Source: a virus
Lineage: Duplodnaviria; Heunggongvirae; Uroviricota; Caudoviricetes
Reading direction: 5' to 3' (one strand)
Length of the DNA stretch: 35,583 nucleotides
IMG/VR virus record: IMGVR_UViG_2711768048_000005
Span: 1 to 35,583 of that record
Part shown: positions 14,397 through 35,000 of the stretch, piece after piece
Numbering within the stretch: the stretch's first letter is position 1
Layout of the letters: each line of letters opens with the position of its first letter
Notes under the pieces: model-generated
What the model was told of the DNA's origin: nothing
Seen by the model: the letters and a program-made list of their open reading frames with translations, nothing else
Database searches by the model: none
Position numbers and translations under genes: made by a program

Positions 14397-14903
14397 TTAA
14401 GAGATTTTCAAAGTCTGCTTAGTACCAGTCTTCTTAATGTTATTGAGGAAAGCAGCCGGAGGATTGCTTAACCAATAGTAATGAAAACCATTTTGCATAC
14501 TGTTATAAGGAACAGTGACAGCAGCACCACCCAAATTAACGGTTATATTCCCTGCTCTACCGTTCTGGAGATATACAGCCATAGTAGGAGTACCACCATT
14601 GAATTGACCAACGATAACGCCTATCAGACGCCCTACGCCCACGTTTTCGGGGTTCTCCATAGATCCTTTACCGCGCATGTCAGTTACTGGATAGTTTGAA
14701 GCAGTTACACCCCAGTTATTACCCAATGAAGTAGACCATGCAGCAGTAGTTACAAACGTGTCCATACCACGACCACACATCGCGCTCATATTGGCAGGAC
14801 GACTAACCTTTAATGCGTTCATTGCTGCGCTCATCCACCGTTGACCAGTTACAGAAACAGCCGATGATCCGACCCAACCGGGCTTATTAACGACATTTGC
14901 CAT
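14397..14903 (-). CDS. virion structural protein (168 aa, Gly/Asn/Ser-rich)
   Basis: Track ORF between the putative tail tube gene and the chaperones. No motif recognised. Confidence 0.4.
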   Translation of the reverse strand: MANVVNKPGWVGSSAVSVTGQRWMSAAMNALKVSRPANMSAMCGRGMDTFVTTAAWSTSLGNNWGVTASNYPVTDMRGKGSMENPENVGVGRLIGVIVGQFNGGTPTMAVYLQNGRAGNITVNLGGAAVTVPYNSMQNGFHYYWLSNPPAAFLNNIKKTGTKQTLKIS

Positions 14904-28117: not shown

Positions 28118-28960
28118 TTACAGTCCGAAGACTTCCAGTGATCCAGCATTCTGACGAATCAGCAAAGCGGTATTATTGACGATTGCTCGCGAGTTATTCG
28201 GTTGTGGCAATTTCAAAGTTGCGGCTTTTTCTTCTTCAAGCAATCCGAGTTTTACAAGATGCGGGATAGCATCAGCAGTGAACTCAATCTGACCGTGTGC
28301 CGACATACGAGCGAACATATAGCCAGGAGGAAGCAGATCATAGCCTTTAGGCTTACCAGAAGCATCCAGACGACGCTCAAGAACACCAGCAGCACATAAA
28401 CCTTTCAGAATCATTTGTACCTTCGTAGAGCCTCGTTTTTCGCCTAATAAGCGGCTAAGACTGTGTGTGTCGATAGCTTTACGAACATGCAATTCAACCA
28501 GTTGTTTCTTTTCTTGAATCAGTTGTTCGTTTGCGGCTTCCAATTCCATTGCCTCACGAATCCAGTCGAGCTTAGTCATGTTTGCGTAAGGGTTGATTTG
28601 CTGAGAACGCAGTTTTTCATTTTCTTCTTTCAGTCGCTTCCATTCCTGAATAACAACCATTCGACGCTTAACATCGTAACCAGTGACAAGAGTCAGCGTC
28701 ATTTCTTCGTCTAAGTGATATACTGGTTCTTTAACAGCATATCCTAAGTTATTGATTCTCTCGACAAATTCAGTTTTGAGCTGATCGATAATACCTAAAG
28801 ATTCGTACATTTCGCGAATATCGCGCATTATATTGCTGTGCTTCTTATCGGTAAATTCAGCGATCTGACGAGAAGACATGGTCAGCGGTTTGGTGTTATC
28901 AACAACCAGAGACACAGAAGCAGTTTTAACAGCAGTATTCATAGTAGTAACAGTATTCAT
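28118..28960 (-). CDS. phage regulatory protein Rha-family (antirepressor-like)
   Basis: N-terminal segment LTMSSRQIAEFTDKKHSNIMRDIREM matches the conserved Rha-family N-terminal motif as I recall it. Confidence 0.65.
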   Translation of the reverse strand: MNTVTTMNTAVKTASVSLVVDNTKPLTMSSRQIAEFTDKKHSNIMRDIREMYESLGIIDQLKTEFVERINNLGYAVKEPVYHLDEEMTLTLVTGYDVKRRMVVIQEWKRLKEENEKLRSQQINPYANMTKLDWIREAMELEAANEQLIQEKKQLVELHVRKAIDTHSLSRLLGEKRGSTKVQMILKGLCAAGVLERRLDASGKPKGYDLLPPGYMFARMSAHGQIEFTADAIPHLVKLGLLEEEKAATLKLPQPNNSRAIVNNTALLIRQNAGSLEVFGL

Positions 28961-29786: not shown

Positions 29787-30361
29787 AGTGGAAATCCTCT
29801 AAAAGAAAGTGAATCAATCTAATATTATTTATAAAGAGAAAATTCTTGTTATTATGAAAAGAGTGATTGTATTCAGTCGGGCAAAGCCCTCCTTCATGAT
29901 TTGATTAAATCATCATCAAAACGAAGAAGTATCTTTAGAATATAAGAATCTTTCTTTTGGAGAAATAATAATAATCAGGAAGCAATTTAGCAACCGAAGG
30001 TTGCAATCCCGAAGGGATACCAATACCTTTCTAGAAAGTGATTGTTACTCACTTCGTTCGTTTACTAGAATCAGTTAGTAACTAGTATTAAATCCCTTTC
30101 TAAGAAAATCCTTTCAAAAGCGAGTGAACGCCGTAGGCGTGAACGTGAGCGAAGCGAACTATCCAATCCCTTTCGAATCCTGCTTGCAGGTCTTAGAAGG
30201 TGTTGATGGGCGCTTCGCGCACGGCTACGCCGTATTCTTTTTGCGAGATCTTTCTTGAACGTAGTGAGAGAAAACGAGCAAAAAGGAGAACGTTAGTTCG
30301 AATTTTATATTCTATGGTCTGTGGGGTGAAATGTCTTTCAAGATCATACAATTATGAGATT

Positions 30362-30486
30362 GAAGTGTAGGGTTAGTGTAGGTGTGTAGGTTTCATAGTG
30401 TAGGTTTGAGGGTGTTATAGTGTAGGTTTACTGGCTAGTGTAGTGTAGGCCAATCCCTTTAAAGCGTAGGTTTGTAGTGTAGGTTT
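30362..30486. repeat. iteron-like array: about 8-9 copies of (TA)GTGTAGG(TTT) at irregular 8-23 nt spacing
   Basis: GTGTAGG (one copy GCGTAGG) read at about 30365, 30376, 30384, 30398, 30420, 30442, 30465 and 30475, with a partial GTGTAG at 30437. Lies inside a 1.25-kb stretch with no ORF of 60 aa or more in any frame. Confidence 0.7.
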
Positions 30487-30680
30487 TTCATCAAAAATTT
30501 TGATAGAAAATCCTTGTGTATTATTTAACCGGAAAATCACCAAAAATCGCTGTAAATGCATGATTTAAAAAGAATTATCAAAAGGTCGCCGTGCTATAAT
30601 AGGTTATAAAGGTTGATAATCGTTATCCGCCATTTTCACATAAAAATTTTGATAGTCATTTCTCGCTTAGGTCAAGTGTA

Positions 30681-30709
30681 TTGACAACTGTCAAGGATTA
30701 TTTTATACT
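30681..30709 (+). promoter_or_regulatory. near-consensus sigma70 promoter (TTGACA-17-TATACT) overlapping a palindrome TTGACA-AC-TGTCAA
   Basis: Hexamers and spacing read directly. The same TAGGTCAAGT 10-mer (30668-30677) occurs at 29221-29230. Confidence 0.6.
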
Positions 30710-30844
30710 TTTTCTCTTTGATAGGGGTTGAAATTTTCGAAACAATCCCCATATTGATGATAAGCAAGATTTTTTCGTGTATAAATACATGCATGAAATG
30801 ATTGTTCACTTCTGAAAATCCCCTGATTCACTGTTAACACATAC

Positions 30845-30872
30845 GGCACTGGTTAAACATACAGTGCCTTTT
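30845..30872 (+). terminator. intrinsic terminator/attenuator in the leader downstream of the 30681 promoter
   Basis: ggcactg-gttaaacata-cagtgcc followed by tttt. Confidence 0.45.
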
Positions 30873-31036
30873 CGATTGAATAATGTACGAATTGATTAAT
30901 TATTAATCTTCTCTTTAGCAATTCGTGCTCCCACTGATCAGATATACAGTGGTTTTACAGGGTTTTCTGAAATGACTTTTATAAATAGAAGTATCGAGGG
31001 CGAAAAGCTCTTTTTATTGTCCTTATTAATCCACAT

Positions 31037-31231
31037 TTGAGGAATCTACTTATGGCTAGACCTGTTAAGTTTACTCGTGAAATGATTGTTGATATTGCTA
31101 AACGCTTTTATGGCGATACTGAACGAGGCGGCGAGAATTTCTTTAAGAAGGAAGGAATTGATAGAAGCGGATTCTATAAGCTAATGAAGAAATACGAAAT
31201 TCAGATAAAGATTAACGTTCAAGTTTGTTAA
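31037..31231 (+). CDS. small putative DNA-binding protein, paralogue B (likely start ATG 31052, 59 aa)
   Basis: MARPVKFTREMIVDIAKRFYG...GIDRSGFYKLMKKYEIQIKINVQV aligns with the product of 27756-27980. RBS GAGGA 8 nt upstream. Confidence 0.5.
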   Translation: MRNLLMARPVKFTREMIVDIAKRFYGDTERGGENFFKKEGIDRSGFYKLMKKYEIQIKINVQVC

Positions 31232-31347
31232 TCCACTTTCACTGAGAATTATATGATGGCTTTAAAAATAAAAAGCCTCCCTTGTTGCAGCAAAGGAGGC
31301 TTGAAATGAACAATTAAAACTAACACAGCATTCAGGAGTATTTATAA

Positions 31348-32349
31348 ATGAAAAATTCTAAGCGCATCACCTTCAACCTGTTTATTAAATCCAACGGCAA
31401 ACTGAACATTACCGTCATGGAAGGTAAAGCAAGCAAACAAGACAAATCCTTTGAAGTAGTATCCGGTAAGACTCTGACCGAAATGCGTCAGAATGCTGGC
31501 ATCAAAGACGGTGCTGAATGGCAGATCACTAACCGTTTCGACAAACGTCACGTTAAACCTACACTGGTAGAAGGTGAATCCGTTTATTGCTTCGCTCGTG
31601 CTGTTAAAGCCGATGAAACTTACTATCTCGCTGTTGTTAAAACTGCTTCCGGCTTCCGTGCTGTAATGCATCACAAGAGCAAGCGTAACGAATACGGCGT
31701 AGAGACCCAGGAAGTCGCAAAACGCTTCCGTACTGTTGCTACTGAATCCACTGTAAAGGATGTTTCTGGTACTGTTAACACCGCTAAAGGCGGTTCCTTC
31801 TACAACCACGCATTACAGGTTACTTCCTCCTTCTTCTGCAAAAAAGAAGCACAGAAAGAAGTTGCTCCGGTAGTAGTTGAAGAAGTTAAAGAAGAAGTTG
31901 CAGTGGTTGAATCTTCCGAAGTTGAAGCACTGAAAGCACGCATTGCTGAACTGGAAGCTGAAAACGCATCTCTGAAAGCTGAACTGGCAGCGCAGGAAAC
32001 CACTTTCGAAGTAGCAGCGGTTGAAGTTGAAGCAGTTGAAGAAAAATCCATTGATGAAGAACTGGAAGAACTCCTTAACTATCGCTGGGGTAACGGTGAA
32101 AAAGTAGAACAGGAAGAACAGAAAGAAGCTGATCCGGTAGTAGTTCCGGTTGAAGAAAAATCCGCACCTGTTACTAACTTTGAATCCCTGCGCAATAACT
32201 TTATGGCTAAATTCAAAACCACTTGGGAAGATACCGAAGAAGAACAAGAAGAGATTGAAGTAAACGAAGACGAGATCCGCGAAGCACAGATGGCACTGCA
32301 TGACGCTATCTACGACACCAACTACAGCGCCTACGCATACGCAGCTTAA
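31348..32349 (+). CDS. hypothetical protein, basic N-terminal domain plus long acidic coiled-coil C-terminal half; strong codon bias
   Basis: 333 aa with RBS AGGAG. Codon choice (cgt, ggt, ctg, tcc, acc, gaa, aaa) looks like highly expressed E. coli genes, unlike its neighbours. C-terminal half is E-rich. Confidence 0.6.
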   Translation: MKNSKRITFNLFIKSNGKLNITVMEGKASKQDKSFEVVSGKTLTEMRQNAGIKDGAEWQITNRFDKRHVKPTLVEGESVYCFARAVKADETYYLAVVKTASGFRAVMHHKSKRNEYGVETQEVAKRFRTVATESTVKDVSGTVNTAKGGSFYNHALQVTSSFFCKKEAQKEVAPVVVEEVKEEVAVVESSEVEALKARIAELEAENASLKAELAAQETTFEVAAVEVEAVEEKSIDEELEELLNYRWGNGEKVEQEEQKEADPVVVPVEEKSAPVTNFESLRNNFMAKFKTTWEDTEEEQEEIEVNEDEIREAQMALHDAIYDTNYSAYAYAA

Positions 32350-33307: not shown

Positions 33308-33862
33308 TTAAGACACATCAAATTCATCGTCTTCTTCTGGTTCTTGTTCCGGTTCATCCATTAATGGTAATTCTTCTTCCTCGTCTTCTCCCAAATCAGC
33401 ATTTTCGAACAAGTCCCCTACTTCATTTAAACGACGCTCGATGATCTCCCTTAGCTTATTCTTCAATGTTTTCTGATCGGTAGCAGATTCGAGAATTTCT
33501 AAAGCATCGATCGTACAAATCTGCAAGATAGTCTGCTTCACCTTCCCACAATATTCAGCTAGCTCCTGTTCTACATAACCGACCGGAATCAGGAGGTTCA
33601 TCGCTTCCTGGTTCTCTCGTTCGGCTGCATCTGCTAAAGCACGTTCACGGCGTAATTTCTCTACATCGATTTGTTCTTTGATAGAAGTTTGTTTAAGCGG
33701 GTTGATAATATTTTTCAAGACCCATTCTGTTCCTTCTTTGGCTGGCACGCGGCGGGTATTGGTGTTAAATGGCAATCCCCTTTCTATCCATCGCTTAGCG
33801 CCACCATTCAATGAATAGCCGTATAAACGGGAAATTTCTGTAAGGGTTAATTCTTCTTTCAT
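33308..33862 (-). CDS. terminase small subunit candidate (Nu1-like HTH protein)
   Basis: 184 aa. N-terminal HTH-like segment (LTLTEISRLYGYSLNGGAKRWIERGLPF), central EKLRRE motif and acidic C-terminus, matching lambda Nu1 architecture as I recall it. Unusually, it is 6.3 kb from the terminase large subunit. Confidence 0.5.
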   Translation of the reverse strand: MKEELTLTEISRLYGYSLNGGAKRWIERGLPFNTNTRRVPAKEGTEWVLKNIINPLKQTSIKEQIDVEKLRRERALADAAERENQEAMNLLIPVGYVEQELAEYCGKVKQTILQICTIDALEILESATDQKTLKNKLREIIERRLNEVGDLFENADLGEDEEEELPLMDEPEQEPEEDDEFDVS

Positions 33863-34220
33863 TGGTTATCCTCCATTAAATTTGCGTAATTTTATTTATT
33901 GGTTTTACGCACAATCTAAGCGCCTAAATCGCATTCTAACGAAGGGAAAGATCCAGTAATGGTAAGGGTTAGGAAGTGGGTTAATAGTCGCGTAGCGACC
34001 GCGCCATGAGTGAAGTGATCACGTTTTAGATCCTGACGCGCACATGAAACACCGCCGTGCCGAAAACTCCCTTTATTTCATCCGTGGAACAGTACCTTTT
34101 TAATTTGTCAAGCATTAATTTCTTAATTTAATTACTAAATCTCATCCCAATAATTGAAAAAATATCAAAAATCAATAAAGTAAGCATCTAAAAGTCAGTC
34201 CATACCAAAAGAGGTATAAA

Positions 34221-35000
34221 ATGAAAAACATTATCGCTGCTATCGTGCTTTCTGCTACTGCTTTCGGTGCTGATGCTGCGTCCTTTGATTGCACTAAGGC
34301 TACTACCAAATCAGAGAAGTTTATTTGTGCTAACGAGTCTATCTCCGCGCTGGATTCTAAACTCCATGAGGTATATGTTAAGGCTGTTAAGATTGATCCG
34401 TCGCTTAAACAAGAGCAACGCAACTGGAATAAAACTGTTCGTGATACAATGATCAATATCGGGCAGATTCAGCCACTGGAGGCTGTATACAACGCTCAAA
34501 TCCAAAACTTGATGAATGTATTATCTAAAGAAGAAACCGCGTCAGAGAGCGATTCAGAGACTTCTGCGAAGGTTGAAGAAGAACAACCGAAACAGGAAGA
34601 AGTAAAGAAACTGAATGTTACCGCGATTTACGCATGTACTACAAAATTTACATGGAAAGTTATCGATGGTGAGGAAACAGAAGCTGTAAAAGATAAACTC
34701 TACGGAAACAAAACTTTTGATAATAACGGCGGTAAACTTAAGATCAAAATGGTAGACGATGTTCCGGTATCTTTTGTGTATTCCGACAAGTATGATGTTT
34801 ATAAATCAAGTCTCAAGCCATCTAAAGAGAATCCAAACGCAATGGAAGGTAAATCCAAACAGGATACTATTGGACGTGTTAACACTTATAACATCTGGGT
34901 AAGCAAAAAAGGTGACATGCGTCTTGAAGTAATTGAACCAAAATTTGATTCTGAATATAAACACACTCAATTTGCATGTGACATGGTAGACGCAGAGTAA
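34221..35000 (+). CDS. secreted protein with N-terminal LprI/DUF1311-like (lysozyme-inhibitor-like) domain; moron
   Basis: Signal peptide MKNIIAAIVLSATAFGADA. The following FDCTKATTKSEKFICANESISALDSKLHEVY resembles the Cys-containing LprI-family N-terminal motif. Confidence 0.55.
   Translation: MKNIIAAIVLSATAFGADAASFDCTKATTKSEKFICANESISALDSKLHEVYVKAVKIDPSLKQEQRNWNKTVRDTMINIGQIQPLEAVYNAQIQNLMNVLSKEETASESDSETSAKVEEEQPKQEEVKKLNVTAIYACTTKFTWKVIDGEETEAVKDKLYGNKTFDNNGGKLKIKMVDDVPVSFVYSDKYDVYKSSLKPSKENPNAMEGKSKQDTIGRVNTYNIWVSKKGDMRLEVIEPKFDSEYKHTQFACDMVDAE

Follow-up and report, generated by a model that had tools for sequence, protein, structure and literature searches.

The leader of gene p59 in a prophage sequence of 35,583 nucleotides (IMG/VR record IMGVR_UViG_2711768048_000005, positions 1 to 35,583; this whole stretch is called the window below) contains, downstream of a promoter designated P1, a hairpin with a T-tract (30845-30872), which a sequence-only reading had taken for the terminator of a small RNA or of an attenuated leader. 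This hairpin is most likely a site for LexA, the repressor of the host's DNA-damage response; the leader has two or three such sites and therefore reads as a DNA-damage switch and not as a small-RNA gene. We consider it probable that the hairpin is a LexA operator and that the boxes together constitute the SOS switch of the rightward early operon p59-p333-p80. Both the binding of LexA and the rightward direction of the regulated transcription are what we infer from sequence comparisons.

The hairpin, designated H2, lies ahead of the reading-frame start at 31052, with the coordinates and letters given by the sequence-only reading. The arms GGCACTG (30845-30851) and CAGTGCC (30862-30868) enclose a 10-nt loop and are followed by TTTT (30869-30872) and then by CGATTG. 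The calculated folding energy is -12.6 kcal/mol (z = -3.96), and none of 200 shuffled sequences was as stable. As a terminator it would have a 7-bp stem and UUUU followed by CGAUUG, with a loop of 10 nt as against the usual 3-8 nt; the loop exceeds the limit of 8 used in the consensus terminator scan, and H2 is absent from the listing of that scan. The interpretation of the hairpin as primarily a terminator was not supported: the element is the best LexA box of the window, and in the relatives the box is conserved and the terminator is not.

The consensus of the LexA box is CTG-N10-CAG or, in its longer form, TACTG(TA)5CAGTA (PMC2994835, PMC12527982). The whole window was scanned on both strands with a position weight matrix (PWM) derived from 24 Escherichia coli LexA sites, and 200 shuffled windows served as control. 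In leave-one-out calibration the known sites scored between 6.3 and 24.9 bits. The best match of the 35.6-kb window was box 1 (CACTGGTTAAACATACAGTG, 30847-30866, 20.4 bits), a strandless palindrome that forms the core of the hairpin 30845-30868. The second best, 85 bp downstream, was box 2 (CACTGATCAGATATACAGTG, 30932-30951, 14.7 bits), also strandless, which corresponds to a further hairpin, H3 (30931-30952). The maxima of the shuffled windows had a mean of 11.5 bits and a top value of 19.2, which is below the score of box 1. In both boxes the CTG-N10-CAG core is embedded, as required of an SOS box, in a 20-mer resembling the consensus, and the two palindromes are similar to each other (76% identity). 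A remnant of a third strandless site, box 0 (CACTGTTAACACATACGGCA, 30829-30848, 11.4 bits), overlaps box 1 by 2 nt; in the window an A to G change at 30845 has converted its CAG into CGG. Counting ACTG-N10-CAGT, which does not depend on the PWM, gave three occurrences in the window against 0.34 expected, a number reached by none of 100 shuffled sequences, and two of the three are in the leader. The third (TACTGTTATAAGGAACAGTG, 14499-14516, 10.2 bits) is located inside a tail-region gene and is probably a chance match.

The conservation of box and hairpin was compared in 25 distinct leader variants of E. coli and Salmonella, collected from contigs of viral, metagenomic and genomic origin. Box 1 scored 15.3-23.3 bits in all 25 variants and box 2 8.5-19.4 bits, whereas box 0, degenerate in the window, was intact (...ACAGCA) in 23 of them, with 12.9-21.3 bits. 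The CTG/CAG ends of boxes 1 and 2, and in box 1 the longer ACTG/CAGT, were invariant, and the centres drifted within A/T-rich sequence; in the Salmonella variants box 2 had the form CTGT-N8-ACAG, with up to 19.4 bits. When the 7-kb loci of the relatives were scanned, PWM matches of at least 12 bits were found exclusively at the leader boxes, at a constant distance from the p59 start codon.

The hairpins behaved differently. In the H3 stem, pairs were broken in 6 and 8 of the 25 variants, and its stability was no better than that of shuffled sequences (z = -0.63). Four variants (L007, L155, L141 and L142) have an H2 stem of just -3.4 or -4.0 kcal/mol, and in each of them the LexA score rose: to 21.8 bits in L007, 20.0 in L155 and 23.3 in L141 and L142. 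The latter two, from Salmonella, carry TACTGGTTAAACATACAGTA, a perfect-ended SOS box (TACTG...CAGTA), followed by TAAAATCG in place of the T-tract; the outer stem pairs and the U-tract are gone, and -4.0 kcal/mol is left. In L009 and L155 the U-tract is weakened to CTTATT. The five inner pairs of H2 provide no evidence for pairing in RNA, because they are identical to the invariant ACTG/CAGT of the LexA box.

Several observations weigh against an SOS switch or limit its scope. A stem of about -10 kcal/mol followed by U5 is retained at box 1 in 21 of the 25 variants, and the outermost H2 pair (30845-30868), G-C in the window, is A-U in 21 variants, which amounts to a double change. This change and the retention of the T-tract suggest some selection on the hairpin itself. 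The relatives from Proteus and those of a type represented by L010 do not have SOS boxes, so that the boxes are a lineage-specific module and do not belong to the core of the family. Of the PWM with its 24 sites, the consensus alone was checked against papers. The scans detected no convincing sigma70 promoter over any of the boxes: the promoter-like sites adjoining them are weak (6-8/12), and P1 is at least 113 nt upstream, the boxes being located 113-235 nt downstream of its start. LexA usually acts at promoters, and we know of little precedent for repression by a LexA roadblock. Finally, the label 'early lytic operon' for p59-p333-p80 is an assumption. On balance we think that the box-1 element is primarily an operator as judged from its conservation, and that in most lineages its hairpin probably also ends a fraction of the P1 transcripts. 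In the lineage of the window, where 7 bp and U4 make a reasonable intrinsic terminator, a P1 transcript of about 155 nt may thus arise as a by-product.

The switch could work as follows. P1 would serve as a conserved, near-consensus sigma70 promoter equipped with an operator-type palindrome of its own. In the lysogen, LexA dimers on boxes 1 and 2, and perhaps on box 0, would keep the operon weakly expressed; once DNA damage has led RecA to stimulate the self-cleavage of LexA, the leader would be freed and the early genes would be expressed. Repression might be brought about by LexA acting as a roadblock to polymerases coming from P1, an effect that termination of some of them at the box-1 hairpin and at another terminator-like hairpin, H4 (see below), would reinforce. 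Alternatively, the boxes might act on a weak promoter located within the module. The former route appears slightly more likely, because P1 is the sole strong and universally conserved promoter upstream of p59.

P1 (30681-30709, + strand) consists of the -35 hexamer TTGACA (30681-30686), a 17-nt spacer and the -10 hexamer TATACT (30704-30709), with a predicted start at about 30716. It was recognised in the sequence-only reading, and we find it exactly as described there. With 11/12 it is the top promoter match of the 3-kb region. In a window of this composition about 1.1 sigma70 matches of at least 11/12 are expected, so that the weight given to P1 rests on its conservation: TTGACA-17-TATA[AC]T occurs with identical spacing in all relatives examined, including those from Salmonella and of the L010 type, with TAAAAT as the -10 hexamer in Proteus, and the promoter is kept even in Salmonella and Proteus loci whose p59 proteins are just 52-67% identical. 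P1 thus has the two hexamers, the spacer of 17 +/- 1 and the conservation expected of a sigma70 promoter. The other 11/12 match of the window, TTGACA-16-TATGAT (- strand, 29283), is situated between p155 and p51 and probably drives the leftward p51-Rha genes.

The palindrome TTGACA-AC-TGTCAA, proposed in the sequence-only reading as a likely operator, has the pattern of one. Its core (TTGACAACTGTCAA, 30681-30694) overlaps the -35 hexamer and is part of a strandless array of half-sites, GTCAA(g)-N5-TTGAC-N4-GTCAA(g), at 30671-30695. The arms TTGAC/GTCAA were unchanged in 20 promoter variants and read ATCAA in one more, while the 4-nt centre took ten values (AACT, ATGT, AAGT, AATA, ATCT, ACTA, ACGC, AAGA, ACCA, TCCT). 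Invariant arms around a hypervariable centre suggest an operator that is contacted at the arms. About 85 nt upstream of P1 there is an extended -10 promoter-like sequence, TGCTATAAT (30592-30600, + strand), and at the equivalent place in Salmonella relatives a sigma54-type TGGCAC-N5-TTGC (L136, at about 3143; L139, at about 3165).

Attenuation of the leader without any participation of LexA is a possible, rather doubtful, explanation. In this scheme H2, H3 and H4 would be RNA elements, either serial terminators or targets of antitermination of the kind known from the early leaders of phages, that set the read-through from P1 into p59. All three hairpins are followed by a T-run on the + strand, and the best case is H4 (30996-31015; hairpin 30996-31012, + strand), found in the terminator scan directly before the ribosome-binding site as GAGGGC GAAAA GCTCTT plus T-run, with -9.2 kcal/mol. 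A GAGC/GCTC stem and a T-run are present at this place in all relatives, including the box-less ones from Proteus and of the L010 type, and the loops vary; a pair that is G.U in the window and A-U in the others fits RNA of the + strand alone. By these comparisons H4 is a conserved terminator-like element. The suggestion that the downstream genes are controlled by an attenuated leader therefore survives in part, in that such a hairpin exists, but it is H4 and not the hairpin at 30845-30872. The RNA of the whole leader is also more structured than shuffled sequences (-85.3 kcal/mol, z = -3.79), part of this structure being simply the DNA palindromes in transcribed form. On the other hand, 6-8 of the 25 variants have broken pairs in the H3 stem and four dispense with H2, and a long-range helix between ACGAATTG and CAATTCGT was rejected after it was found to lose pairs, uncompensated, in 8 of the 25. 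Attenuation also leaves unexplained that both palindromes match the LexA box and match it better as the stems decay, and what it says about H4 is also compatible with control by LexA.

Two other invariant motifs are found between box 2 and H4 on the + strand of the alignment (30954-30987): TTTACA (30954-59) and TATAAATA (30980-87). The distance between them, 19-20 nt, is too long for the spacer of a normal rightward sigma70 promoter, and such a promoter was rejected. TATAAATA occurs twice in the leader (30780-87 and 30980-87), and the copy preceding the terminator is invariant in all relatives, those from Proteus and of the L010 type included. In four relatives (L010, L028, L033 and L040) another leader module takes the place of the SOS boxes (at about 3420-3560 in L010); it contains two copies of the 16-mer described in the next paragraph and five direct repeats of the type TTAACA(C/T), spaced by about 10-11 bp. 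The Proteus relatives (L134) have neither module. The segment from P1 to TATAAATA and the terminator appears, from this comparison, to be an exchangeable regulatory cassette.

Between boxes 1 and 2 of the window, on the - strand at 30914-30929, there is a 16-mer, AGCACGAATTGCTAAA (also given as TTTAGCAATTCGTGCT), which is invariant in all 25 variants and present in two copies in the L010-type relatives. An exact scan of viral contigs found it in more than 120 stretches, mostly from genomes of 46-53 kb and often in several copies on one strand. Escherichia phage vB_EcoS_IME347, whose relatives are Drexlerviridae, is among these loci. The 16-mer is identical to the 'G-group' form of a 21-nt intergenic repeat, aaATAGCACnnnTTGnTAAAA, of phages TLS, T1 and Rtp, the function of which was described as an open question in 2024 (PMC11447400). 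It also contains a marbox-like sequence, GCACGAATTGCTAAA (30914-30928, - strand), that fits the marbox consensus of MarA, SoxS and Rob, GCAHWWWWTGYYAAA (PMC6900184), at 14 of 15 positions. A single match of this quality could arise in the window by chance (1.44 expected); it gains weight from the invariance of the 16-mer and from the T1-like repeats. These fit the marbox at 14 (GAA group) or all 15 (TTT group) of the 15 positions, and the 'T-group' form found in L028 and L040 fits it at all 15. Among 358 distinct T1-like instances, all in the same orientation, 150 match the marbox completely, and 247 have a -10 hexamer (at least 5/6) exactly 20 nt downstream. This geometry, with the centre of the box near -40 and in the forward direction, is the class II arrangement (forward, approximately -36 to -55), as distinct from class I (reverse, approximately -56 to -85; PMC12052159, PMC10268841); the marbox of micF is at about -41 (PMC8811837). 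The sequence data suggest that the T1-like repeats belong to promoters dependent on Rob, MarA or SoxS of the host. A MarA-like protein was found neither in the window nor in the T1-like loci, which makes a factor supplied by the host the simplest candidate. We found no paper linking the T1-like 21-nt repeat with the marbox. With a marbox match at class II distance the function of the repeat becomes directly testable, and this may be worth more than the finding in the leader. In the window itself the 16-mer has no -10 hexamer at the class II distance of 20 nt on either strand and no clear promoter at class I or class II distance. A T1-like promoter cassette was rejected for the window, since the cassette profile aligned just the 16-mer.

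The boxes could instead control a leftward promoter inside the module, an alternative that we hold to be possible but on the unlikely side. The sequence between the boxes contains a strandless AT-rich block, TTGAATAATGTACGAATTGATTAA (30876-30899), which is conserved in the alignment of the 25 variants and in which part of the 16-mer recurs inverted as GTACGAATTGATTAA. Weak -10-like hexamers occur in it on both strands, AATAAT (+, 30879-84) and TACATT (-, 30887-82), and the corresponding candidate promoters score 6-8/12. The leftward promoter would use TACATT or TACAAT (30887-30882) as its -10 and AAGATT, TTGATT in Salmonella, as its -35 hexamer, and would start at about 30875. The 16-mer would then be upstream of it in forward orientation; boxes 1 and 0 would cover +9 to +46, a placement known from colicin operators, and box 2 would come to lie at about -57 to -76. 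Induction by SOS would yield a transcript running antisense into P1 and on toward p155, the Rha-like regulator and the structural genes, with the P1 RNA, stopped by the box-1 hairpin, as its antisense partner. Consistent with this, the spacing of box 1, AT-rich block, 16-mer and box 2 is fixed while the distance to P1 is variable, the combination TTGATT-17-TACATT reaches 8/12 in Salmonella variants, and the -10 hexamer is TACAAT in five E. coli variants. In the L010 type TATGAA stands 20 nt beyond the second 16-mer, a T1-like geometry that is also directed leftward, and all 358 T1-like instances have that orientation. Against it, the candidate of the window, AAGATT-17-TACATT, scores 6/12 and is under the threshold of the scan; its 16-mer is 26 nt from the -10 hexamer and not 20, and of the T1-like cassette profile the 16-mer alone aligns. 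L141 and L142 have TTTATT, without the key A, and there is no leftward terminator or gene within 1 kb.

An improbable further version combines elements of the above. Box 1 would be a dual-code element in a face-to-face switch, a LexA operator as DNA and an intrinsic terminator as RNA: a short constitutive RNA from P1 would stop at the operator, and DNA damage together with an activator of the MarA/SoxS/Rob type bound to the 16-mer would turn on the opposing transcript, the same 16-mer being the T1-like repeat that stands at the class II marbox position before about 20 genes per genome. If this were true, the virulent T1-like family and the present prophage family would both plug their early transcription into the mar/sox/rob regulators of the host.

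That P1 gives rise to a discrete RNA of about 155 nt (30716-30872), a small RNA ended by an intrinsic terminator and itself the functional product, is decidedly improbable. The strong points of this reading are the strength and conservation of P1, the stability of H2 followed by UUUU, the stem of about -10 kcal/mol with U5 kept in 21 of 25 variants, the single compensatory change (G-C/A-U) at the base of the stem, and the folding of the 160-nt RNA starting at P1 (-36.9 kcal/mol, z = -2.3). The body of this RNA, however, is not conserved. P1 and the boxes are separated by about 135 nt in the window, by about 105 in L141 and by 48-54 in L140 and L136, and the stretch is a mosaic of differing modules: not every relative has the 5' hairpin H1, and some have iteron-like insertions. 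H1 of the window (GGGGTTG...CAATCCCC, 30724-30750, + strand) has -9.0 kcal/mol with a z of just -0.6 and is weakly supported as a structure; in L008 both of its sides are changed with the pairing kept, and in the leader of L010 the H1 module is found elsewhere. The stretch also contains a duplicated p59 fragment: an exact 13-nt copy of p59 coding sequence, TGAAATGATTGTT, is present at 30794-30806 as well as at 31078-31090, in the former case within a short pseudo-ORF (open reading frame; MHEMIVHF*), and has the look of a remnant of an earlier duplication or recombination event. As regards the terminator, the hairpin is lost in L007, L155, L141 and L142, the U-tract is lost in the last two, the 10-nt loop is atypical of terminators, and the inner five pairs of the stem are the ACTG/CAGT of the LexA box. 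A search of Rfam returned no family at the gathering threshold and nothing credible at E<=5. The candidate small-RNA gene between promoter and terminator is thus not supported. A conserved RNA acting in trans is unlikely in view of the variable body and of the negative Rfam search, and any short P1 transcript would be a by-product or would act solely in cis or as antisense.

That the palindromes are sites of a phage protein or elements of a replication origin occupying the 1.26-kb non-coding region, with a coincidental likeness to LexA boxes, is very improbable: iteron-like GTGTAGG repeats (30361-30486), DnaA-box-like TTAATCCAC motifs on both flanks of p59 and the 76% identity of the two palindromes speak for it, but both palindromes score like authentic LexA sites and drift toward the LexA consensus and not toward each other, and nothing else in the 35.6 kb scores comparably on the LexA PWM.

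The non-coding region (29787-31051) is bordered on the left by the leftward p155 and on the right by the rightward operon p59-p333-p80. Apart from the leader it contains further repeats and structures. Between 30361 and 30486, upstream of P1, there are at least seven iteron-like repeats of the form (A)GTGTAGG(TTT) on the same strand; the same motif is found inside the P1 leader of the Salmonella relatives L136, L141 and L146, and in L146 an inverted pair flanks TATAAATA. Possible roles of these repeats are those of iterons in an origin or of 'stoperator'-type sites for a repressor. The motif TTAATCCAC, present at 31026-31034 and 31228-31236, resembles the DnaA box TTATCCACA. At 30120-30243 (+ strand) there is a long GC-rich hairpin with 21-nt arms (30136-56/30211-31; -56.4 kcal/mol, z = -3.86), ending in a terminator-like ACGGCTACGCCGT plus ATTCTTTTTG and conserved in Salmonella relatives, which could be a structured RNA or a cruciform element of the DNA.

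The 35.6-kb window is a complete prophage with fragments of hicB at both ends, and in E. coli O55:H7 DEC5A hicB is interrupted by the same element. Of 5426 complete E. coli genomes, 58 (about 1%) contain the region 29800-31400, and 31 of them have the leader itself, with at least 86% identity. DNA similarity searches with the region in phage and plasmid collections returned no similar sequence, a pattern scan of genome contigs gave just two matches, both in Bacteroidetes genomes and taken as chance, and the nearest phage counterpart of the large terminase is just 44% identical, which marks the prophage family as uncharacterised. On this sequence evidence it is a widespread, uncharacterised prophage family of E. 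coli, Shigella and Salmonella to which no sequenced phage is closely related. Its genes include a large serine recombinase (1488-3182), a leftward block for lysis, tail, head and terminase (3717-26995), a Rha/Ant-type regulator (28118-28960, - strand) and a small-terminase-like gene (33308-33862).

The first gene of the rightward operon is p59 (31052-31231, + strand), which encodes a small three-helix protein of DNA-binding type; in the RefSeq annotation of the same prophage ATG 31052 is likewise the start of the next gene. No similarity of p59 to Tum, Ant or gp7 was detectable. For p333 there was no match in Pfam, PHROG, NCBIfam or the sequences of the PDB, all of its homologues are annotated as 'hypothetical', and its modelled structure, with a confidently predicted N-terminal beta-rich domain and an acidic coiled-coil tail, gave no fold match. 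Function searches of the same kind returned nothing for p155. In the scanned ORFs, which cover the non-structural ones, neither a repressor of the CI/Cro or S24 type nor a replication protein was recognised. Although p59 and p333 are both on the + strand, a strong hairpin of 12 bp located between them (31273-31302) has its T-run on the - strand; it may serve to end leftward or antisense transcripts.

Two genes connect the prophage with virulent phages. The first prophage gene, p90 (1-273, phrog_6147), has homologues of about 52% identity in T1-like phage loci (37-53% in six loci). The protein is the sole one common to the prophage and the T1-like loci, has no recognisable domain and no DNA-binding signature, and is probably a moron. 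In the gene of an LprI-family protein (34221-35000) the first approximately 380 bases (about 34215-34601) are 95-97% identical at the DNA level to genes of RB49-like (Krischvirus) phages of the T4 type, and beyond about 34601 the match stops; this suggests that a temperate and a virulent lineage of phages have recently exchanged DNA.

LexA-controlled prophage switches reportedly include the tum gene of coliphage 186 and antirepressor genes of the Gifsy type. In Bacillus phage GIL01, LexA binds SOS boxes at a promoter, also called P1 (PMC4551915). As in these systems, SOS boxes, here predicted ones, adjoin an early or regulatory gene and would wire a temperate phage to the LexA of its host; as in GIL01, a CI-type repressor is not recognisable in the scanned ORFs. 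Unlike in the three systems, the boxes of the prophage are over no recognisable promoter and are located inside the leader, 113-235 nt past the sole strong promoter. If LexA does bind, the family would be induced by direct control through the host LexA and not through a cleavable phage repressor, and the annotation of a small RNA would be wrong. Palindromic operators in 5' leaders are easily taken for terminators.

Overlapping double SOS boxes are the hallmark of colicin operators (PMC2994835). Boxes 0 and 1, which overlap by 2 nt in 23 of the 25 relatives, have a similar layout and could accommodate two adjacent LexA dimers. The likeness is incomplete in that box 0 of the window is degenerate (CGG for CAG), and in that the colicin boxes follow immediately after the -10 hexamer of a defined promoter; the geometry of overlap differs too, the start-to-start spacing of the prophage boxes being 18 nt. 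The leader also resembles the terminators and attenuators of phage early leaders in having a GC-rich stem and a U-run between a strong promoter and the first gene, a resemblance that is good for H4 and moderate for the box-1 hairpin. The latter differs from them in its 10-nt loop, in being conserved as a LexA box and in its decay in four relatives, and no antiterminator is known. In contrast to the T1-like repeats, which stand exactly 20 nt before a -10 hexamer, the 16-mer of the window has none there on either strand. The wiring of prophage control to LexA is thus already known from other phages; what is unusual here is the position of the predicted boxes in a leader and the possible use of one element as both SOS box and terminator.

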